A DNA stretch of 37,165 nucleotides, taken from the UHGV virus genome UHGV-0093680; one strand, given 5' to 3'. Positions 2,302-36,638 of the stretch are shown here, piece by piece; position 1 is the stretch's first letter, and each line of letters starts with the position of its first letter. The position numbers and the translations under genes are program-made. The DNA is from a virus. A model generated the notes under the pieces. It saw nothing but the letters and a program-made list of their open reading frames with translations. It had not been told where the DNA came from and did no database searches.

Positions 2302-2542
2302 TGGCTGCCTCCTGCTTTTCTGCCTTCAACACCATGCGAGAACCATCATCCAGCTCCCACACTATCTCACCACCTTCAGCCATGACCAGTTGCCACACCA
2401 ATTGAGCAGCCTCATTGGTAACATCACGACCTGGATCATTGCCAACGCGCATACGTCCACCTTCAACATCGCGCATTTTTGCCAGCATGATAGTTTTTGA
2501 TAGCGGTGAAAAACCAAGCTGTAGTCGTGCTGAATTACTCAC
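2288..2542 (-). CDS. Hypothetical phage protein (84 aa)
   Basis: In-frame GTG start (VSNSARLQ) 6 nt after GGAGG within ORF 2288..2575; stop overlaps the Ea22-like start; GTGA overlap with the upstream gene. Confidence 0.5.
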   Translation of the reverse strand: MSNSARLQLGFSPLSKTIMLAKMRDVEGGRMRVGNDPGRDVTNEAAQLVWQLVMAEGGEIVWELDDGSRMVLKAEKQEAASERN

Positions 2543-3039
2543 TGGTTGCCTCCTTTGCGAAGCTGTTCCGCCCATTCTTCAAGGGATTTCTCCGCATATT
2601 CACCGGACAGGCCATCAATCGGGTACGGTTCATTAGCCAACTCTTCTTTCGCTGACAGAATCATGCGCGTAACGTCGAAAACTTCACGCAAAGACTTATT
2701 GATAAATCCGTGATTGAACGCAGCAGCAAGACGGCTGGCGGTATAGTTAATCCCCTCGTTGCGTGCTTCCGCACGAATTTCAGCCAGAAAAGCATCGGTG
2801 GCTGGGGTTTCCGTGAAGTTGTCCTCCCAACCGTAGTACTCCTGACGACAGAAGTTATTAAATTCCTTCTCCGACTGTTTAAGCGCCGCATTCTCCGCTG
2901 CCAGCGCCGCGCACTTGGCCTCCGCTTCAGCAAATTTACGCACCAGATATTCAGCGTTTGTTTCGTTAACCTTTAAATCACTTGGGATGCATTTACCTTT
3001 AAGAAATCCATCCATCTCAATTAGTGACATTTGTTTCAT
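2539..3039 (-). CDS. Hypothetical phage protein (166 aa)
   Basis: Long ORF in the same orientation and tightly packed in the early-left operon; no motif recognised. Confidence 0.55.
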
Positions 3040-3210: not shown

Positions 3211-3507
3211 TCAGTCATTACTGATAGCGCCATAGCGTGAGCGGTAATTACGCAGGCGCGGGTCGATATATTCAGGGAATTTGTCTATTGTCGCTTTTCG
3301 CAACGGTCTCATTGCTGTTTCGTTTGTTCGGTCCTTCTCCTGTTTTAGCGCGAGTTGTATATCGCGTCGGTACATCCGTTCTGCTTTTGTTTCTGGTGTC
3401 AGAGCAAGAAACGCGTCGAAATTGTTTTTGATATTTTCCAGCACCTCCGCCTTGGAACTACCGGAGCAATTGCGCGGGTCATCCGCACCATACAGAGGCG
3501 CTGGCAT
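3211..3507 (-). CDS. Hypothetical phage protein (98 aa)
   Basis: ORF fitting operon packing; no motif recognised. Confidence 0.5.
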
Positions 3508-5102: not shown

Positions 5103-5235
5103 TCTTTGGGACTCCTGGCTGATTAAGTATGTCGATAAGGCGTTTCCATCCGTCACGTAATTTACGGGTGATTCGTTCAAGTAAAGATTCGGAAGGGCAG
5201 CCAGCAACAGGCCACCCTGCAATGGCATATTGCAT
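5095..5235 (-). CDS. cIII: CIII (FtsH inhibitor, CII stabiliser)
   Basis: In-frame ATG within ORF 5095..5337 gives MQYAIAGWPVAGCPSESLLERITRKLRDGWKRLIDILNQPGVPKNG, essentially the lambda CIII sequence as I recall it (C-terminus shorter); AAGGAG 7 nt upstream. Confidence 0.85.
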   Translation of the reverse strand: MQYAIAGWPVAGCPSESLLERITRKLRDGWKRLIDILNQPGVPKNG

Positions 5236-5296
5236 GGTGTGCTCCTTATTTATACATAACGAAAAACGCCTCGAGTGAAGCGTTATTGGTATGCAT

Positions 5297-6596: not shown

Positions 6597-7280
6597 TTAG
6601 GGGGTTGAGACTCCAGAGAGCAATCCGTAGATTTTATATACAGCAAATGCTAATGCTGGCAAGCCAAGGGCCCATTTGATTATATCAAGCTTAACATCAC
6701 TAAGCTTACCTTCTAACTTTGCCTCTTGAACAGAAAGAGCTGCATCGATCTTTTTTGATTGGGAGTCAAGGGCACTCTCAATTCTACTCGATTGTATGTC
6801 CAGACGACTGTTGATTTGTTCGTGCTGAGTAACAACTAAATGCTTCATCTCCTTTATATCTGAAGCCATTAGTTCACGCCATTTGGCCATATCAGCCTGC
6901 ATTTTTGAGGCCACTGCATCCACTTCAGCTTTATTTGCCTTCAGAAGTGCCTGTATTTCGTTTCTGCTCAAATCGGACATTGCGGTTCCCTGTATAGGAG
7001 TTTCCTCGTACGGTGGGATAACATTAGATTGTCCTTTACAATCGGCAACCCCTCCTTTATCTACGATTGTAGCAGTTAGCTGGGAATTGGTCGCATCATC
7101 CACCATGTTTTTTGGTGAATAAGAGGAAATAGGCGTAGAAAACAGATTACCTTTTGCTGTTTCCATGAACATCATGAAATCGCGAGTATTAACGTTATTC
7201 AGGGAAACTTGCAGTGGTTTAACAATACTTGATGTTTTGTAAGTAATAGTTAAATCACCTACTTCTTCCGGTTGTTGCAT
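6597..7280 (-). CDS. Unknown tail-anchored coiled-coil membrane protein (227 aa), distal gene of the cI-proximal cassette
   Basis: Long ORF; central heptad-like region (…AEVDAVASKMQADMAKWRELMASDIKEMK…) and a C-terminal hydrophobic helix (WALGLPALAFAVYKIYGLL); start overlaps the upstream stop (TAATG). Confidence 0.7.
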   Translation of the reverse strand: MQQPEEVGDLTITYKTSSIVKPLQVSLNNVNTRDFMMFMETAKGNLFSTPISSYSPKNMVDDATNSQLTATIVDKGGVADCKGQSNVIPPYEETPIQGTAMSDLSRNEIQALLKANKAEVDAVASKMQADMAKWRELMASDIKEMKHLVVTQHEQINSRLDIQSSRIESALDSQSKKIDAALSVQEAKLEGKLSDVKLDIIKWALGLPALAFAVYKIYGLLSGVSTP

Positions 7281-7612
7281 TACGACTTCGCTCCATTAGA
7301 GTTTTGTGCCTCTAATTGTTCGAAAAGAAGAACTATATTCTCCTGAAGAGCCTTTAGTTGTGCCATTGGCATTATCACAGTGCATTGCTGATTGAGTTCA
7401 TTTACAGAGCCTATCTGCATATTCGCTCTACCTGGTTGATCTGGTATATCATTTTGGGATAGTACCGCAGGTATTGACTTGTTTGCGATAAAATGTATAC
7501 AAATGAGATTTTTTTCCGCTCCCGGTAGTGGAGCAAAACTAGCGAAGTCCGCATAGGTTTCAATATAATCCACAGATGGTTTAATTTTGACCGGTTCCAT
7601 AACGCCTCTCAT
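7280..7612 (-). CDS. Unknown protein (about 107-111 aa), proximal gene of the cI-proximal cassette
   Basis: ORF 7280..7615; first ATG at 7612, with an alternative ATG at 7600 preceded by GAGAGG; no motif recognised. Confidence 0.6.
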   Translation of the reverse strand: MRGVMEPVKIKPSVDYIETYADFASFAPLPGAEKNLICIHFIANKSIPAVLSQNDIPDQPGRANMQIGSVNELNQQCTVIMPMAQLKALQENIVLLFEQLEAQNSNGAKS

Positions 7613-7617
7613 CAAAT

Positions 7618-7723: not shown

Positions 7724-8431
7724 TCACAAACTTTTCAGCCACTCCCTTGCCTCGATGTCATCCAGATGGCGAGATTGCTTCAGAATACCAGCCACATACT
7801 CCACCTTTGCTACTTGATGATAAGGCAACGTTATTGGCCTATGGTCCTGGTTGATGCTTGTAAACTGGTATTCTCCGTCTCTGTCATAGCCAAGAACCTT
7901 AATCATGTTGTGTCCTTCAACGGTTCTGACAAACACCTCATCACCCGGGAATACTTTGGTGTTAGGCTCAATGAGTACATATTCTCCTGATTTTATTCTG
8001 GGCCACATGCTGTCTCCTTTCACACGAAGGCCAAAGGCATCTGGATCATCGCTATAAATTTTGAGCCACCCATCGCGCTCTTCGGTCATCTCGATGGCAC
8101 CATCAACACCAAGAATTGCCTCACCAACCACGCGCACTAACCCTTTTTTTAATTTGCCAACAAATGAAAGAGTATCTTCATCATTCGCTCCATTTAACGA
8201 AGTGCCGTGCTGAAGCCAAACAACATCAACGTTTAGAAATTTCGCAAGCGCATTCATTTTTTCCTGACGCGGTAAAGACTCAGCATTAAACCATTTGCTA
8301 ACGCCTTTGGACGAAAGAGAAAGGGCACGGGCTATAGCCATTCCCCTACCATGTTCATCAAGACCAGCTTCTTTACAGGCTTGCGCTAGCCGCTGGGCGA
8401 ATTCTTTGCGCACTTTTTCATTCTGAACCAT
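7724..8431 (-). CDS. cI: CI-type repressor (HTH plus S24 LexA-like peptidase domain)
   Basis: N-terminal HTH region, C-terminal GDSMWP…K autocleavage motif; divergent from cro across an operator region. Confidence 0.85.
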   Translation of the reverse strand: MVQNEKVRKEFAQRLAQACKEAGLDEHGRGMAIARALSLSSKGVSKWFNAESLPRQEKMNALAKFLNVDVVWLQHGTSLNGANDEDTLSFVGKLKKGLVRVVGEAILGVDGAIEMTEERDGWLKIYSDDPDAFGLRVKGDSMWPRIKSGEYVLIEPNTKVFPGDEVFVRTVEGHNMIKVLGYDRDGEYQFTSINQDHRPITLPYHQVAKVEYVAGILKQSRHLDDIEAREWLKSL

Positions 8432-12274: not shown

Positions 12275-12886
12275 ATGCGAATAAAAAAACTAATTGATCA
12301 CGATGAGCTTCTGTCAACATTATCATATGACTCAGAAACAGGAATATTTAAATGGCTAAAAACAAATTCAGTAGTAAGAGTAAAAGGTAGTATTGCTGGA
12401 GGTGTTAGTGGTGGTTATATATGCATTAGCATAAATAATGTTTTGTATTATGCGCATAGACTTGCTTGGTTCTATGTATACAAAAAATGGCCTCCTAAGT
12501 TTATTGATCATGTAAATGGGAACAGACTTGACAATAGGATTTCAAATCTAAGACTGGCAACAGAGGAGCAGAATGCAAGAAACATTGTAGGGAATAGGTT
12601 AAACACATCCGGTGCGATTGGAGTGTCTTGGGATAAGACAACTGGCAGGTGGAAGTCTTATGTTGGTTATAAAAATAAGACAATATCGTTAGGGTATTTC
12701 GATAGCAAAGAAGATGCAGCATTCATAGCAGCACTAGCAAGAAAGAAACTATATGGAACTTATGCGAGTAAAGCACTTAATTGCGAGCATGAGCTTTTAT
12801 CTCAATTTAATAATGATGAGGATAAACTTGCGGAATATCTTAAGGAAAAATCTAAAAGGACTCGAAAGCGTGTTAAAAAAAGATAA
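12275..12886 (+). CDS. HNH endonuclease with AP2-type DNA-binding domain
   Basis: HNH motif IDHVNGNRLDNRISNLRLATEEQNARN followed by an AP2-like segment; sits in a visibly AT-rich island with no clear SD. Confidence 0.75.
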   Translation: MRIKKLIDHDELLSTLSYDSETGIFKWLKTNSVVRVKGSIAGGVSGGYICISINNVLYYAHRLAWFYVYKKWPPKFIDHVNGNRLDNRISNLRLATEEQNARNIVGNRLNTSGAIGVSWDKTTGRWKSYVGYKNKTISLGYFDSKEDAAFIAALARKKLYGTYASKALNCEHELLSQFNNDEDKLAEYLKEKSKRTRKRVKKR

Positions 12887-14641: not shown

Positions 14642-15290
14642 TGGCAGCAAATACCGAAATATTTGGGTAGTTGGCGATCTGCACGGATGCTACACGAACC
14701 TGATGAAAAAACTGGAGACGATAGGATTCGACACCAAAAAAGACCTGCTTATCTCGGTTGGCGATTTGGTCGATCGCGGTACAGAGAACGTCGAATGCCT
14801 GGAATTAATCACATTCCCCTGGTTCAGAGCTGTACGTGGAAACCATGAGCAAATGATGATTGATGGCTTATCAGAGCGCGGAAACGTCAATCACTGGATG
14901 CTTAATGGCGGTGGCTGGTTCTTTAATCTCGATTACGACAAAGAAATTCTGGCTAAAGCTCTTGCCCATAAAGCAGATGAACTTCCGTTAATCATCGAAC
15001 TGGTGAGCAAAGATAAAAAATATGTCATCTGCCACGCCGATTATCCTTGTGACGAATACGAGTTTGGAAAGCCAGTTGATCATCAGCAGGTAATCTGGAA
15101 CCGAGAACGAATCAGCAACTCACAAGACGGGATCGTGAAAGAAATTAAAGGCGCGGACACGTTCATCTTTGGTCATACGCCAGCAGTGAAACCGCTCAAA
15201 TTTGCCAACCAGATGTATATCGATACCGGCGCAGTGTTCTGCGGAAAGCTCACATTGATTCAGGTACAGGGAGAAGGCGCGTGGGCATAA
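14619..15290 (+). CDS. ninI: Ser/Thr protein phosphatase (lambda NinI / PPase-like)
   Basis: In-frame ATG within ORF 14544..15290; metallophosphatase motifs GDLHG, GDLVDRG, GNHE; starts [25 protein letters not shown] as in the lambda phosphatase. Confidence 0.85.
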
Positions 15291-15769
15291 GAGAACTAAA
15301 CCTCACCAAAGAACAGCACGATTGGCTGAATGGCTGGCTTGAACTGTGGGGCGCATGGGTTTATTCAGGCCGCCTGGAAAAGCGCATGAGCAGCGTAATA
15401 GCGAAGTTCATGGAGAGCGTAGAGCCGGGAAGAGTTATGACAAGGCCAATGTGTAATGATGATGATGGAATGTTGATTTCTCAGGTCGTCGATTCCGTCA
15501 TGTGCATTGACAAGAAAGCCTTTGGCATCCTCCTCAGCTACTACGCTCATGGATCTTCCAAGCATGCCATTGCATCTTACTATCATCGTGCCGCAAGACC
15601 TCGCAAGATGTTATGCCGGGGCGGCGGGCGTATTCAAAAACCATCGCTCGCAACCTGTCGCCGGGAAGTTGACGAAATCCTCAATGCCTCGTTGTTTATG
15701 ATTTACCCGGTTCTGGATAGTGCGTTTAAAAACCGGAAACGTGTAGAGAAAATTAAACATGTAGCATAG
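15281..15769 (+). CDS. Q: Q-type late antiterminator (QuuD / phage-82-like family)
   Basis: Segment LELWGAWV…[21 protein letters not shown] resembles the DLP12 QuuD-type Q as I recall it; sits after the nin block and before the late promoter; GTG start after GGAGAAGG. Confidence 0.6.
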
Positions 15770-15775
15770 AATGTG

Positions 15776-15805
15776 TTGACATCATTGAGCAAATGAGCAA
15801 CACTA
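15776..15805 (+). promoter_or_regulatory. Candidate late promoter pR'
   Basis: TTGACA hexamer just after the Q stop, with a weak -10 about 17 nt downstream; a qut site is expected here but not resolved. Confidence 0.4.
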
Positions 15806-15825
15806 TTCGCATAAGCTGCCGTTAG

Positions 15826-15860
15826 TGACTCTTAAGTTGCAACGGTGGCTTTTTTTATTT
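15826..15860 (+). terminator. Candidate tR' terminator
   Basis: Imperfect 8-bp stem (CTGCCGTT…AACGGTGG) followed by TTTTTTTATTT, about 50 nt downstream of the candidate pR'. Confidence 0.5.
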
Positions 15861-15935
15861 GGGGCAGTCGTATAAAGGTCATTACGGAAGGCTGTTAACC
15901 TTCTTATCGTGGTTCGAGTCCACGCTGTCCCGCCA
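15861..15935 (+). tRNA. tRNA-like gene, anticodon GUU (Asn) by manual folding
   Basis: Acceptor stem GGGGCAG/CTGTCCC (one G-U pair), anticodon stem GAAGG/CCTTC with loop CTGTTAA, T-arm CGTGG-TTCGAGT-CCACG, discriminator G, encoded CCA; D-stem only 3 bp. Confidence 0.5.
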
Positions 15936-15940
15936 AATAT

Positions 15941-16016
15941 GCTGGTTTAGCTCCAATGGTAGAGCAGTCGCCTTGTAAGCGAATGGGTGGCGGTTCAAGT
16001 CCGTCAACCAGCACCA
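15941..16016 (+). tRNA. tRNA-like gene, anticodon UGU (Thr) by manual folding
   Basis: Acceptor stem GCTGGTT/AACCAGC, D-arm GCTC-CAATGGTA-GAGC, anticodon loop CTTGTAA, T-arm GGCGG-TTCAAGT-CCGTC, encoded CCA; one mismatch in the anticodon stem. Confidence 0.55.
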
Positions 16017-16059
16017 TAACTGAGCCGTAGCCACTGGCTATCCTGAATTCATCAGTGAT

Positions 16060-16092
16060 AGTTACGCTGCGGCCTTCTTTTTTCCCCTTCCC
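16060..16092 (+). terminator. Possible terminator between the tRNA locus and the holin gene
   Basis: GC-rich segment (CGCTGCGGCC) followed by TTCTTTTTTCC; the stem is not cleanly defined. Confidence 0.3.
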
Positions 16093-16134
16093 AATATAAG
16101 AACTACGCAATCCGTTACTGGCGGAGGCGTTGCT

Positions 16135-16350
16135 ATGAAATCAATGGACAAAATCTCAACTGGCATTGCCTACGGAACATCCGCTGGTAGTGCGGGATAC
16201 TGGTTTTTGCAGTGGTTGGATCAGGTCAGTCCATCACAGTGGGCTGCGATTGGTGTACTGGGGAGTCTGGTTCTGGGCTTCCTGACTTATCTGACAAATC
16301 TGTACTTCAAAATCAGAGAAGACAAGCGTAAGGCTGCACGGGGAGAGTAA
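16135..16350 (+). CDS. S: Class II pinholin, phage-21 S-type, with dual start motif
   Basis: [63 protein letters not shown]… is near-identical to S21 as recalled; 71 aa, two TM segments, Met1/Met4 dual starts; GGAGG upstream. Confidence 0.9.
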
Positions 16351-16354
16351 TTCA

Positions 16355-17161
16355 ATGACTCAAAACTATGAACTGATTGTGAAAGGGATCCGCAATTTTG
16401 AGAATAAAGTTACGGTAACTTTAGCGTTACGGGACAAAAAACGCTTTGACGGTGAAATTTTTGACCTGGACATCTCGCTGGACCGTGTTGAAGGTGCCGC
16501 GCTGGAGTTTTATGAGGCAGCAGCCAGAAGGAGCATCAGACAGGTCTTCCTGGATGTTGCTGCCGGGTTATGTGAAGGGGATGAGCAGTCGCCGGAAAAG
16601 CGCCCCGTAATTTTAGAGGCGCAGGATGTGTTGATAACCTGCAAAGGAAAGCTACCGGGAAGAATTACTGGTTCTCTGAAGATGCCGCCGTCAACACTGC
16701 GGTCAGAAAAAGAGGCGTCTTGTCTGCAGTCTGAGTACTCCATTACGGTTAAAAGTGCCGGAGAGGAAGGAAATAAACGTTATTTTATTGCGTCTGCACC
16801 TGATAAAGATCAGGAATGGGAGTGTAACCGGCCATCCTTTGTTGTATACGGAGATGGCGGGAAAATAACCATCTCAGAAAATGGGAAATTAACACCGCCA
16901 TCGCACCAGCATAGTGAGGCGCTCATTGAATTTGCCATTGATTACCTGAAGAACAATAAAAAGCAGGGGCTGATGAAGCGCATTGGTCATTGCATGGGAT
17001 ATCTGCAGATAGCTGCTGAGATTGAAGCGCTGGCCAGTGGTGCGGACAAGGATGCAGTTGTGCGGGAGGCTCTTCTTCGTGATTTTGATAATCCGCCCTT
17101 TAAAAAAGTGCCGGCTTACTGGTTTCATCCAGGACTGACTTATCTTAAAGGACGTATATAA
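16355..17161 (+). CDS. Unknown 268-aa protein inserted between holin and endolysin
   Basis: Starts 4 nt after the holin stop with GGGGAGAG upstream; predicted soluble; no motif recognised. Confidence 0.65.
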   Translation: MTQNYELIVKGIRNFENKVTVTLALRDKKRFDGEIFDLDISLDRVEGAALEFYEAAARRSIRQVFLDVAAGLCEGDEQSPEKRPVILEAQDVLITCKGKLPGRITGSLKMPPSTLRSEKEASCLQSEYSITVKSAGEEGNKRYFIASAPDKDQEWECNRPSFVVYGDGGKITISENGKLTPPSHQHSEALIEFAIDYLKNNKKQGLMKRIGHCMGYLQIAAEIEALASGADKDAVVREALLRDFDNPPFKKVPAYWFHPGLTYLKGRI

Positions 17162-17203: not shown

Positions 17204-17737
17204 ATGAACACCAAAATCAAATACGGCCTGTCGGCTGCCGTTCTGGCGCTGATTGCCGCTGGTGCGCCTGCGCCTGACATTCTCGACCAGTTTCTGGATG
17301 AAAAGGAAGGTAACCACACTACGGCATACCGCGATGGTTCCGGCATCTGGACCATCTGTCGGGGTGCCACGATGGTGGATGGAAAACCCGTTTTTCCCGG
17401 TATGAAACTGTCGAAGGAAAAATGCGACCAGGTTAACGCTATTGAACGTGATAAGGCGCTGGCATGGGTGGATCGCAATATTAAAGTAACACTGACCGAA
17501 CCACAAAAAGCGGGTATCGCGTCATTTTGTCCCTATAACATTGGCCCCGGTAAGTGTTTCCCGTCGACGTTTTATAAGCGGCTGAATGCCGGTGATCGTA
17601 AGGGGGCATGCGAAGCGATTCGCTGGTGGATTAAGGATGGTGGGCGCGATTGCCGCATACGTTCAAATAACTGCTATGGGCAAGTTATTCGTCGTGACCA
17701 GGAAAACGCATTAGCCTGTTGGGGGATAGAGCAGTGA
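17204..17737 (+). CDS. R: SAR endolysin (T4-lysozyme-like fold)
   Basis: N-terminal signal-anchor-release segment [17 protein letters not shown] followed by the lysozyme catalytic region (E…D…T around [20 protein letters not shown]). Confidence 0.85.
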
Positions 17738-18228: not shown

Positions 18229-18375
18229 ATCTGAATTTCACAGCGCATCTCACGCGCATATTACATCACCCGAGCCTTTCAGAAAGTTGAGCCTGAGAAC
18301 TGCCGTATATGGTGGCGACCATCTCGGGGCGGCTTTTCTGTGAGACAGGCTCACTTTCTAAAAGGTAAAGACGCT

Positions 18376-18864
18376 ATGAACCAATTAGAAGAAAAGCTTC
18401 AAAGAATGATTTCCTTATACAAGGAAGATAACTGCCAAAAAGTTCCTGAAAACATCGCAGAGTTAATGGAATTGGCAAGTGAATTTTCTGGCATGCTTAA
18501 GTCGTCAGGTGTTCGGTCAGCGTTCTTTGTTGAAATGCTGATGCACGGCGGACTTATGGCAACAATGAGACGTGTAATGGAAGACCAGAGAAAAGAACCT
18601 CCTCAGGTATACGTTTTGTCATCGAAGAAAACTGGGCTAACCAAAATTGGGTATTCATCCAACATTCCACAACGCATCAAATCGCTTGGCAACTCTGGAC
18701 CAGACTGCTTGAAGCTTGAGTGCCTGATCCCTGGTGGAAGAGAAACTGAAAACATGCTTCATCGCAAATTTGCCGCAAAGAGAAAGCACGGTGAATGGTT
18801 CGCCCTGTCCAAGGATGACATTGAGGGATTGAAATCTGTAGCGATTACTTCTGATGGCTATTAA
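18376..18864 (+). CDS. T5orf172 / GIY-YIG-like domain protein (putative nuclease)
   Basis: C-terminal motif block VYVLSS…LTKIGYSSNIPQRIKSLG…ETENMLHRKFAAKRKHGEWFAL fits the T5orf172 family as I recall it; ATG chosen inside ORF 18340..18864. Confidence 0.6.
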   Translation: MNQLEEKLQRMISLYKEDNCQKVPENIAELMELASEFSGMLKSSGVRSAFFVEMLMHGGLMATMRRVMEDQRKEPPQVYVLSSKKTGLTKIGYSSNIPQRIKSLGNSGPDCLKLECLIPGGRETENMLHRKFAAKRKHGEWFALSKDDIEGLKSVAITSDGY

Positions 18865-24740: not shown

Positions 24741-26000
24741 ATGTCTAACCAGTTAACAAAAGACCTCGAAATCCTCTTTGAGAGCGTCATTGATAGTTTT
24801 GAGGCGTCCAATGTCGTTTCCCGCGAGTGCAGCAAGTTCCGACCGGGCGACATTGAAATGCAGCGCGCTGGCGACGTTGTTTATCGCCCTCAGGGCTACC
24901 ACCTGAAAACCGTGAGCGGACTTGATCTGACTTCGGCCACTGCAAACTCACTCGTTCAGCGTCAGGTGCCTGCTCGCTTCCGCGAGCCAGAGAACGTCAT
25001 CTACGAACTGGACGCAAAAGAAATGCGCGATCCGTGGCACAAAGAGCAGGCTGGCAAGGCGGCGGGTCGCCAGTTGGCGGCGTGGGTTGATAACATGATC
25101 GTCGATGAGGTGGTCGCTCGCTCCACCAACGTGGTCACCATTAAATCGGCGTCCACCGGTAGCACTCTCGGCGAAGAACTCTGGAACGCATCGGCTGACG
25201 TTGATGCAATGATGCTGTCCATTGGTGTGCCTCAGGGTGGTCAGCGCAAGGCGTTCTACAACCCGTTCAACTACAAAGACCTGGCTAAGGAGCTTGGCTC
25301 TCGCGCATATGCGGTCGGTGCAACTCTGACAGCCTATGAGAAAGCTCAGATTCCACCTGTGGCATCCTTCGACAGTTTCCGCGTTGATTATGCTGGCGCA
25401 ATGAAGGCTGGTTCAGCTACCGCTGTAACTCTCGGCGGCGCAGTAAAACACAAAGTTACCGCGATGGATTCCAACGGCGCGCCTACCGATAACCGCCAGG
25501 GTGACATCACCGTATCCACTGCTGGCGTACTGGCTGTCGGCGATGCATTCACTATCGCAGGCGTTAACAGTGTCCACATGATCAAGAAGGTGGATACAGG
25601 TAAGCCGCAGGTATTCCGCGTCCTGGCAGTAAATGGCACTACCGTTACCATCAGCCCGAAAATTCTGCCACCAGACAACGCGGATAAGGCGTCTATTCCT
25701 TACCAGAACGTTACCGCCAATCCGGTGGCAAACGCGGCGATCACCATCCTCAACAAGAAGGCTGCGGCTTCCAACATCTTCTTCGCTGAGGGTTCTGTTG
25801 AGCTGATGTATGGCAAGTTGGCATTCCCTACCGGCCAGGGTCCGCAGGTTATGACCGCAACGACCGAGCAGGGTGCGACCATCATCATGGCTTACCAATT
25901 CGACGCTAAATCTGGCAAAACGTGGACTCGCTTCACCACGCTGGCTGGCGCAAGCGTACTGGTCCCGGAATTCACCGGCCTGGTATTGGCTAACCAGTAA
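24741..26000 (+). CDS. Major capsid (coat) protein
   Basis: 419 aa ORF directly after the scaffold gene and followed by a strong terminator; size and position match a P22/Sf6-type coat gene. Confidence 0.7.
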   Translation: MSNQLTKDLEILFESVIDSFEASNVVSRECSKFRPGDIEMQRAGDVVYRPQGYHLKTVSGLDLTSATANSLVQRQVPARFREPENVIYELDAKEMRDPWHKEQAGKAAGRQLAAWVDNMIVDEVVARSTNVVTIKSASTGSTLGEELWNASADVDAMMLSIGVPQGGQRKAFYNPFNYKDLAKELGSRAYAVGATLTAYEKAQIPPVASFDSFRVDYAGAMKAGSATAVTLGGAVKHKVTAMDSNGAPTDNRQGDITVSTAGVLAVGDAFTIAGVNSVHMIKKVDTGKPQVFRVLAVNGTTVTISPKILPPDNADKASIPYQNVTANPVANAAITILNKKAAASNIFFAEGSVELMYGKLAFPTGQGPQVMTATTEQGATIIMAYQFDAKSGKTWTRFTTLAGASVLVPEFTGLVLANQ

Positions 26001-36376: not shown

Positions 36377-36576
36377 GTAAAGAATGTTGTTTCTGCGGCA
36401 TTAGCGAATCAGACGCTGATCAAACATACATTTACTCTAAAGAAACAGGTCGGATGCTGTGTAGTGACTGCGTGTTGGACATCATAAGATACAAGCATCT
36501 TGGATGTTCTGCCAGCATTAGCAATATAGGTGAAGTATATGAAGGGAAAGATATAACTGATAGATCAGAAAGTTGA
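36373..36576 (+). CDS. Small Cys-rich (zinc-ribbon-like) protein (67 aa)
   Basis: CFCG…CSDC pattern; ATGA overlap with the arc-like stop. Confidence 0.45.
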
Positions 36577-36638
36577 AGCCCCAACTGCGGGAACAGTCAG
36601 GGCTTCGGTTGTCAGTAAATCCGTGGAGAAAAACCAAC

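Follow-up and report, generated by a model that had tools for sequence, protein, structure and literature searches.

A phage-21-type tRNA-Asn/tRNA-Thr cassette in the late leader of a P22-like/lambdoid virus genome

What would a temperate phage gain from carrying two tRNA genes between the terminator of its late leader and the first gene of its late operon? This question is raised by UHGV virus genome UHGV-0093680, a stretch of 37,165 nucleotides that was analysed here as a whole (hereafter the window, with positions numbered from its first letter). An earlier note, made from the sequence by itself, had folded by hand two tRNA-like sequences with anticodons GUU (Asn) and UGU (Thr) in this place. 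We conclude, with high confidence, that both are real and selectively maintained tRNA genes. They form a cassette of the type found in phage 21 and, overall, the best explanation for it is probably that it would provide nuclease-resistant replacements for host tRNAs. The other explanations are considered below, together with the evidence bearing on each of them.

Two maintained tRNA genes

ARAGORN, run over the whole window, calls exactly two tRNA genes, Asn(gtt) and Thr(tgt), whose positions are given in Table 1. In agreement with these calls, the independent Rfam tRNA covariance model (RF00005, gathering score 29) gives 58.1 bits (E = 3e-10) for tRNA-Asn and 61.9 bits (E = 3e-11) for tRNA-Thr. 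The anticodons read by hand in the earlier note are those called by ARAGORN, and a CCA end is encoded in both genes, as the note had also proposed. Both tRNAs have the features of canonical elongator tRNAs, namely four helices, a 7-nt anticodon loop with U33 and a purine at position 37, a GUUCRA T-loop, G18G19, and U8/A14. The two arms that had been described as non-canonical are indeed so: the Rfam alignment marks a U13·U22 mismatch in the D-stem of tRNA-Asn and a G27·A43 mismatch at the top of the anticodon stem of tRNA-Thr. The latter mismatch is also seen by comparison of the arms, since this anticodon arm reads GUCGC/CUUGUAA/GCGAA, with U28-A42 as a further pair of the stem.

Regarding aminoacylation, the identity set of the Escherichia coli asparaginyl-tRNA synthetase (AsnRS) comprises G34-U35-U36 and G73, and that of the threonyl-tRNA synthetase (ThrRS) comprises G1-C72, C2-G71, G35, and U36. 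These elements are present in the window: tRNA-Asn has the loop CUGUUAA and a G preceding the CCA end, and tRNA-Thr has GC...GC acceptor ends and the anticodon UGU, together with A73.

The mismatched stems would also be expected if the two sequences were non-functional relics, that is, decaying pseudogenes or neutral passengers carried along with the Q-terminator module. Besides U13·U22 and G27·A43, most relatives have a U4·U69 mismatch in tRNA-Asn, and decay does occur in this slot, as in phage L/ST64T, where the second tRNA-like sequence has a 4-nt anticodon loop and is rejected by ARAGORN. Against this explanation, both tRNAs score about 30 bits over the Rfam threshold, and their helices are kept by selection across diverged variants. 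An exact search of IMG/VR with the diagnostic D-arm of tRNA-Asn gave at least 120 loci, and covariation was evaluated on their unique variants by pair counting (here and below, counts of related loci are those among the matches listed). In tRNA-Thr, 94.8% of the cells are paired, vs. 22-47% when the partners are slid; in tRNA-Asn, these values are 90.2% and 33-53%. In each of the two tRNAs, 6 pairs have changed on both sides and 0/500 shuffles match the covariation score, so that all four helices are maintained by compensatory changes. The mismatches themselves are conserved among the unique variants: U13·U22 in 18/18 and U4·U69 in 16/18 for tRNA-Asn, and G27·A43 in 21/22 for tRNA-Thr.

The tRNA genes are also far better conserved than the flanking genes. 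Over 85 unique Asn-Thr loci, conservation amounts to 91% for the terminator tR', 98% for tRNA-Asn (with the caveat that 18 nt of this gene are fixed by the search pattern), 96% for tRNA-Thr, and 89% for the hairpin 3' of the tRNAs, vs. 70% for the 3' end of the Q gene, 67% for the promoter, and 42% for the holin gene. The block made up of tR', Asn, Thr, and the hairpin is, therefore, much better conserved than its surroundings. Finally, ACA is decoded in vivo by the orthologue of the window tRNA-Thr, which also rescues cells (Govande et al. 2025, PMC12445682; bioRxiv 10.64898/2026.07.10.737580), and these rescue experiments largely refute the relic explanation for tRNA-Thr. Altogether, we regard it as extremely improbable that the two genes are relics.

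Proposed resistance of the two alleles to tRNA-cleaving nucleases

The role of tRNA-Thr is best approached through P2 OLD, the effector of P2-lambda interference, which kills by cleaving the anticodon stem of the host tRNA-ThrU(UGU) at paired CNG motifs (PMC12445682). In that work, cells were rescued, and ACA decoding was restored in vivo, by phage Thr(UGU) tRNAs, explicitly including that of phage 21, named tRNA-Thr21, which withstands cleavage as an unmodified transcript. Resistance requires the alteration of the CNG motifs (C28U/G42A) plus a shortened stem, the main determinant having been mapped with tRNA-Thr6, and an additional copy of the host thrU gives no rescue, in contrast to the phage allele. 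In the same way, the Thr(UGU) tRNA of phage HK446 returns OLD-sensitive phages to near wild-type plating, and the host thrU does not (bioRxiv 10.64898/2026.07.10.737580). By sequence comparison, the HK446 tRNA-Thr is the same as that of phage 21.

The anticodon arm of the window tRNA-Thr is identical to that of the tested tRNA-Thr21. Positions 28-30/40-42 read UCG/CGA, vs. CUG/CAG in the host, so the paired CNG motifs are lost, and the stem is shortened by the unpaired 27·43. Its odd anticodon stem (G27·A43, U28-A42) is, therefore, the mapped resistance determinant. The sole difference from the tRNA-Thr of phage 21 and HK446 is G49-C65 in place of A49-U65, a compensatory pair of the T-stem that lies outside the arm mapped as the main determinant of OLD resistance. 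Judging from its sequence, the window allele is predicted to belong to the OLD-resistant rescue class of tRNA-Thr21 and HK446. By analogy with these tested tRNAs, nuclease replacement is reasonably likely to be a main selective role of tRNA-Thr.

The two tRNAs could alternatively be explained by codon usage, with no role in defence. They would raise the supply of decoders, of ACA for Thr and of AAC for Asn, thus speeding the synthesis of abundant late proteins, and their location where the late operon begins suits such a demand. The codon baseline used here is a 50-kb region of E. coli K-12, with genes called in the same way as in the window. ACA represents 23.7% of the Thr codons of the window (12.0 per 1000 codons), vs. 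12.4% (6.3 per 1000) in K-12, a 1.9-fold enrichment, and, in the coat gene (24741-26000), 17 of the Asn codons are AAC and 3 are AAU (17/20 AAC). Similar arguments have been published for the ACA bias of SfI (PMC3636060) and for the coat gene of phage L, where 24/25 Asn codons are AAC (PMC8022706). However, early genes (22.0%) and late ones (25.5%) are enriched in ACA to a similar extent, with an enrichment in ACU as well, so the lower G+C content of the phage (47.3%) fits better than a tuning to the tRNA. Regarding Asn, AAC accounts overall for 51% of the codons, vs. 55% in the host, which means that there is no bias outside the strongly AAC-biased coat gene; the authors of the SfI study likewise saw none for Asn (PMC3636060).

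Codon supply would also leave two further observations unexplained: the conserved oddity lies in the anticodon stems and not in the anticodons, as seen in the G27·A43 mismatch, and the phage allele rescues where an extra host thrU does not (PMC12445682; bioRxiv 10.64898/2026.07.10.737580). The comparison of anticodons with codon use, suggested in the earlier note, thus bears out the enrichment in ACA, but neither a difference between early and late genes nor a bias in Asn, and lends its rationale weak support. Codon supplementation is, in our view, unlikely to be the explanation for the cassette, and an increased supply of a decoder for the rare codon ACA would rather represent a secondary and non-exclusive benefit of nuclease replacement.

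The host counterpart of the other tRNA, tRNA-Asn(GUU), is also cleaved by P2 OLD, more slowly than ThrU (PMC12445682). In addition, Lys(UUU), Thr(UGU), and Asn(GUU) are substrates of AriB, from PARIS, the cut falling between positions 40 and 41, within the motif U36-A-A-U39-C40, with Lys(UUU) as the main target and Asn(GUU) as a secondary yet biologically relevant one (PMC12409363). With a slash for the cleavage position, positions 36-41 are UAAUC/C in the host asnT and UAAUC/A in the host Thr, vs. UAACC/U and UAAGC/G in the Asn and Thr of the window. The three tRNAs of phage T5, which are validated as resistant, read UAAGCA (Thr), UAAGUU (Asn), and UAAACC (Lys) at these positions, and U39 is absent from all of them, as it is from both window tRNAs. 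The window tRNA-Asn is altered with respect to the host asnT at positions 28, 39, 41, and 42, and its positions 28-30/40-42 are AAG/CUU, vs. CGG/CCG, a paired CNG, in asnT. Both window tRNAs, therefore, carry substitutions at or next to the cleavage position of the host motif, as expected for the AriB-resistant class. The changes in the stem of tRNA-Asn fit a resistant allele without being a proof of it, and we propose only tentatively that nuclease replacement may be a main selective role of this tRNA as well.

The same principle, replacement by resistant tRNAs with substituted stems, is known from the arrays of virulent phages of the T5/T4 type, which neutralise PARIS AriB, the retron-Eco7 PtuAB, and P2 OLD. 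The T5 array, however, has about 24 tRNAs, including Lys(UUU), and its own early promoters, whereas the window has two tRNAs, none of them for Lys(UUU), inside the late-operon leader of a temperate phage.

Expression of the cassette and proposed mechanism

In the mechanism that we propose, the RNA polymerase would start at the constitutive promoter pR' (around 15811) and, without Q, would stop at tR' (15813-15860), one base before tRNA-Asn. Once Q has been loaded at the Q-binding element (QBE), read-through would give a transcript with Asn(GUU), the 5-nt spacer, Thr(UGU), and the hairpin, followed by the lysis and virion genes. From the anatomy of the locus, the co-transcription of the tRNAs with the late operon is very likely. 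The host would then excise the tRNAs, with RNase P processing the 5' ends and exonucleases trimming the 3' ends as far as the encoded CCA, and its AsnRS and ThrRS would charge them. During the late phase, decoders of AAC/AAU and ACA would be supplied in a form poorly cut by the anticodon-arm Toprim nucleases of competing elements. In the case of Thr, this is shown for the tRNA of phage 21 and HK446, which resists P2 OLD and substitutes for the destroyed host tRNA-ThrU, owing to the loss of the paired CNG motifs and to the mismatch at 27·43, by which the stem is shortened.

The anatomy on which this mechanism relies was established by comparison with phage 21. The interval 15500-16337 is 96% identical to phage 21 over 838 nt, and the positions of pR', QBE, tR', and the holin gene were transferred to the window by ungapped alignment with the curated record OL657228. 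The predicted pR' is the same in both phages over the whole stretch between the -35 hexamer and the transcription start. The tR' hairpin folds at -20.2 kcal/mol (z = -6.1), a value equalled by 0/200 shuffles. Downstream of it comes UUUUUUUAUUU, and the U7AUUU tract extends to one base before G1 of tRNA-Asn. A consensus terminator scan of 15000-16800 found none, since the loop region of tR' exceeds the 8-nt loop limit of the scan; the folding and the annotation in phage 21 show it to be a strong terminator.

The window also encodes an Abc2-type anti-RecBCD protein (3211-3507, minus strand; PHROG 656, E = 5e-45), which is 61% identical to the Abc2 of HK446. OLD-type sensors are provoked by functions of this class, which we count in favour of nuclease replacement. 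All five Thr residues of this protein are encoded by ACA, whose cognate tRNA is destroyed by P2 OLD. The published OLD inhibitor of HK446, gp27 or Oad2, matches the 166-aa open reading frame (ORF) at 2539-3039 (minus strand) over the first 36 residues only, with 92% identity; the remainder of this ORF is unrelated to Oad2, which makes it a mosaic EaE-like gene. A homologue of gp33, the trigger of OLD, was not found in the window.

Several points weigh against nuclease replacement as the role of the cassette. The first one is timing: the trigger of OLD, the manipulation of RecBCD, is early and the cassette is late, so that the tRNAs might appear too late for a rescue. An ACA codon is present even in the Q gene, and the cassette lies behind tR'. 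In the experiments with HK446, a single viral Thr tRNA failed to rescue lambda or delta-recB cells, the evasion of OLD was mapped to the protein Oad2 and not to the tRNA, and the authors are sceptical of an anti-OLD role for the HK446 tRNA and suggest that it may be adapted to temperate life instead (bioRxiv 10.64898/2026.07.10.737580). A literature search covering BTP1 transcriptomics and similar studies found nothing on the expression, processing, or charging of the native tRNAs in lysogens. As to tRNA-Asn, its anticodon stem keeps the full 5 bp, and the loss of U39 and of the CNG motifs could be due to drift, since any Watson-Crick pair is allowed at those positions. Finally, the T5 class of AriB resistance includes a resistant tRNA-Lys(UUU), without which there is no rescue, and this species is present neither in the window, with its two tRNAs, nor in any array variant called by ARAGORN among the matches listed. 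Lacking the main target of AriB, the pair alone cannot, therefore, defeat the characterised PARIS.

A more specific proposal, which is possible yet rather doubtful, is that Asn(GUU) and Thr(UGU) together would represent a dedicated two-component countermeasure against Toprim tRNases (OLD, PARIS AriB, and their relatives), with basal expression through read-through of tR'. It would be aimed at the tRNases of P2-like prophages and P4-like satellites, the carriers being temperate lambdoid and P22-like phages. The grounds for this proposal are that OLD and AriB each cleave the two corresponding host tRNAs and that, in the phage, the two copies are altered where the cut would fall. A leaky tR' behind a constitutive promoter might supply resistant tRNAs in lysogens and in early infection, before the action of Q, and the variant in the window would have a second terminator-like hairpin downstream. 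The published tests cover the Thr gene alone, and HK446 is described as having a single tRNA (bioRxiv 10.64898/2026.07.10.737580), whereas ARAGORN finds in it the complete Asn-Thr pair.

Basal expression would also be needed for a role on the side of the lysogen, where the tRNAs of the prophage would help the host or the temperate lifestyle, by compensating for a tRNA gene damaged by integration or by serving AT-rich acquired genes. In lambdoid phages, pR' is constitutive, which counts in favour of such a role, and the window cassette is bracketed by two terminator-like elements, so a leaky tR' could give tRNAs without the holin. A role of this kind is the one proposed by the authors of the HK446 work for its tRNA (bioRxiv 10.64898/2026.07.10.737580). 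Against it, phages that carry the cassette differ in their integration modules. The attachment site of SfI and HK446 is thrW, the gene of a CGU and not a UGU tRNA, whereas that of phage 21 is in icd, a gene that does not encode a tRNA; none of these three phages has a tRNA-Asn attachment site. Moreover, in SfI and HK446 an attP-borne replacement leaves the target gene intact, as is also stated for P22/L (PMC8022706). A paper on helper-embedded satellites deals with tRNA genes in their capacity as attachment sites of the chromosome and is not relevant to the cassette. Low basal expression is to be expected as well, with tRNA-Asn beginning one base past a strong terminator, and a U-run follows the 3' hairpin in just 23/96 loci. 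We consider this lysogen-side role very unlikely, and nuclease replacement continues to be the preferred explanation.

The cassette, its relatives, and its surroundings

The features of the locus are listed in Table 1. The interval 15776-16135 spans from the -35 hexamer of pR' to the ATG of the holin gene, with tR' upstream of the tRNAs and the pinholin gene downstream, which is the location between late terminator and holin given in the earlier note.

Table 1. Features of the late leader and its flanking genes in the window.
Feature	Position	Strand	Description	Evidence
Q gene	15281..15769	+	Q21-type late antiterminator	PHROG 943 'anti-termination protein Q-like', E = 1.8e-89; ~96% DNA identity to phage 21 Q region
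Late promoter pR'	15776..15811	+	-35 TTGACA at 15776-15781; -10 at 15799-15804; predicted start 15811	Phage 21 alignment
QBE	15784-15799	+	ATTGAGCAAATGAGCA	Phage 21 alignment
tR'	15813..15860	+	Intrinsic terminator of the late leader	Annotated in phage 21 (PMID 1704887, via OL657228); folding
tRNA-Asn	15861..15935	+	Anticodon GUU, 75 nt, encoded CCA, discriminator G73; U13·U22; G4·U69 wobble	ARAGORN, Rfam, covariation
Spacer between tRNAs	15936..15940	+	5 nt, AATAT	AATAT in 46 related loci, AACAT in 46 (among the matches listed)
tRNA-Thr	15941..16016	+	Anticodon UGU, 76 nt, encoded CCA, G1-C72, C2-G71, A73	ARAGORN, Rfam, covariation
3' hairpin	16024..16083	+	Conserved extended hairpin 16024-16073, then CUUCUUUUUU	Folding, conservation
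Holin gene	16135..16350	+	Class II (pin)holin of the S21 type; the protein genes of the late operon begin here	PHROG holin families, E = 6e-35; matches phage 21 S21-71/S21-68

The 118-nt spacer after tRNA-Thr folds at -39.3 kcal/mol (z = -3.8). Its hairpin may be terminator-like or a 3' element for processing or stability that closes the cassette, and in the phage L record a terminator is annotated 3' of the tRNAs. The hairpin is kept in nearly all Asn-Thr loci, with few of them having the T-run mentioned above, and a conserved second terminator was rejected on these grounds as a general feature of the cassette.

The window has every feature of a late-leader tRNA cassette of the phage 21 type: tRNA-Asn right after the U-tract of tR', a 5-nt spacer, Thr(UGU), and the conserved 3' hairpin, all between Q and the holin gene. 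Phage 21 (OL657228) shares with it the promoter, the QBE, the terminator, the gene order, the length of the spacer, the 3' hairpin, and the S21 pinholin downstream. The differences are three substitutions in the tRNAs, one in Asn and two in Thr, and a spacer that reads AACAT in phage 21. Besides the 49-65 pair of tRNA-Thr, U4 of the tRNA-Asn of phage 21 and HK446 is G in the window, so that a G·U wobble takes the place of the U4·U69 mismatch.

In P22-like phages of the Sf6/SfI/BTP1/CUS-3 type, Asn-Thr follows a Q21-like gene, and the cassette is shared from the terminator stem to the 3' hairpin; the Sf6 record annotates the tRNAs as 'similar to phage 21'. Contrary to the window, Sf6 has another QBE/promoter sequence, a holin of the lambda-S type, and no U-run past the hairpin. 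The earlier note had also compared this slot with that of the Stx-converting phages. The order in 933W is Q-pR'-terminators-ileZ/argN/argO-stx2AB-...-S-R, so the likeness holds for synteny, the slot being in both cases after Q, pR', and the terminators and before the lysis genes. It does not hold for the tRNAs, which in 933W are Ile-AUA and Arg species with a putative promoter of their own, pT, and no sequence relationship to the Asn-Thr pair. Neither does a toxin gene follow in the window, as the note had observed: the next genes are the pinholin gene, at 16135, and an ORF with a DUF1327 domain.

The cassette is already known and widely distributed; the copy in the window represents a minor allelic variant of it, with a haplotype that is also present in one IMG/VR contig (L123). 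At 97-98% identity, the pair is annotated in phage 21, Sf6, SfI, and BTP1, and also in SPN9CC and others; RefSeq labels the copies of 98% identity as tRNA-Asn and tRNA-Thr (among the matches listed) and names the counterpart of the holin gene 'class II holin family protein'. The region matches 1,037 of 5,426 complete E. coli genomes, about a fifth of them. The tRNAs of SfI were found with tRNAscan-SE (PMC3636060), as were the orthologous ones in the genome announcement of phage 21 (PMC9119081). In phage L/ST64T, the tRNAs begin 46 bp past the putative late start site, and whether they are excised from the late mRNA was stated as unknown (PMC8022706). P22 is not among the carriers of the pair, since the phage L paper describes it as having no tRNA genes (PMC8022706).

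According to ARAGORN, the array is Asn-Thr in 97 of the related loci, and other arrays add Phe(GAA), Arg(UCU), or Gly(UCC). A T-tract lies immediately 5' of tRNA-Asn in about 103/113 loci. In HK446, the pair, identical to that of phage 21, lies behind a lambda-type pR'/6S/tR' leader, the junction being TTTTTTATTT/GGG; the two tRNA genes are placed directly 3' of the lambda-type tR' (L132 2098-2253; NC_019714 35097-35252). The mobile unit would therefore consist of the terminator end, Asn, Thr, and the hairpin. Expanded cassettes are present in Klebsiella phage ST16-OXA48phi5.2 (Asn-Phe(GAA)-Thr; L004 494-813) and in Flyfo siphovirus Tbat2_3 (Asn-Phe(GAA)-Thr-Arg(UCU); L005 501-738), both with compensatory changes in the acceptor stems of Asn and Thr and in the anticodon stem of Asn. 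An IMG/VR contig with an Asn-Thr-Gly array (L116) carries a chimeric tRNA-Thr, which corresponds to the phage allele up to position 26, past the D-arm, and to the host thrU in the remainder, directly followed by a glyT-like tRNA-Gly(UCC). Its sequence suggests a recombination of the phage cassette with the host thrU-tyrU-glyT-thrT operon. An Asn-Gly(UCC) array was found in seven more loci, and Gly(UCC) is among the targets of OLD (bioRxiv 10.64898/2026.07.10.737580). In phage L/ST64T, the place of tRNA-Thr is taken by a tRNA-like sequence of 72 nt, published as 'tRNA-Leu(TAA)' (L003 581-652; phage L cII-101, MW013503 37918-37989). It scores 42.1 bits with Rfam, with only 4 nt aligned in the anticodon loop, and would be a gene in decay or else a tRNA-like RNA that does not decode.

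Taken as a whole, the window is a mosaic of the P22-like/lambdoid kind, with genes for a P22-type portal, gp10, and ejection proteins. Further signs of this mosaic are a P22-type sar antisense RNA (36571-36638, minus strand; 95.6 bits in Rfam) and a lambda cIII thermoregulator element (5190-5248, minus strand; 88.5 bits). A near-identical full-length prophage was not found in complete E. coli genomes, the best match having 83% coverage and 97.5% identity (query 12166-37165). The similarity to phage 21 stops at the end of the holin gene. The 268-aa ORF that follows (16355-17161, plus strand), located before the gene for a SAR-type endolysin (17204-17737), has no counterpart in phage 21; its N-terminus belongs to Pfam DUF1327 (E = 4e-41) and its C-terminal half matches PHROG 1085, neither family having an assigned function. 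Two ORFs of 227 and 111 aa (6597-7280 and 7280-7615, both on the minus strand), between the gene for an N-like antiterminator and the ORF at 7724-8431, have no informative family match, the matches being limited to PHROG 14825, likewise with no assigned function, and to no Pfam family above the curated cut-off; they occupy a slot where lambdoid prophages often hold exclusion or defence genes. An ORF with HNH_3 and AP2 domains in the replication/nin region (12275-12886, plus strand) and another one with a T5orf172/MUG113 domain after the lysis cassette (18340-18864, plus strand) look like homing endonucleases or otherwise mobile genes.

As an annotation, the finding of these two genes is routine, standard pipelines already calling them in many phage genomes. 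The current interest of the cassette stems instead from the work of 2025-26 on tRNA-cleaving defence nucleases, in whose light no other natural case of a nuclease-resistant tRNA in a temperate phage is as widespread. Its distribution may help to predict prophage induction or superinfection in hosts with P2-like elements.

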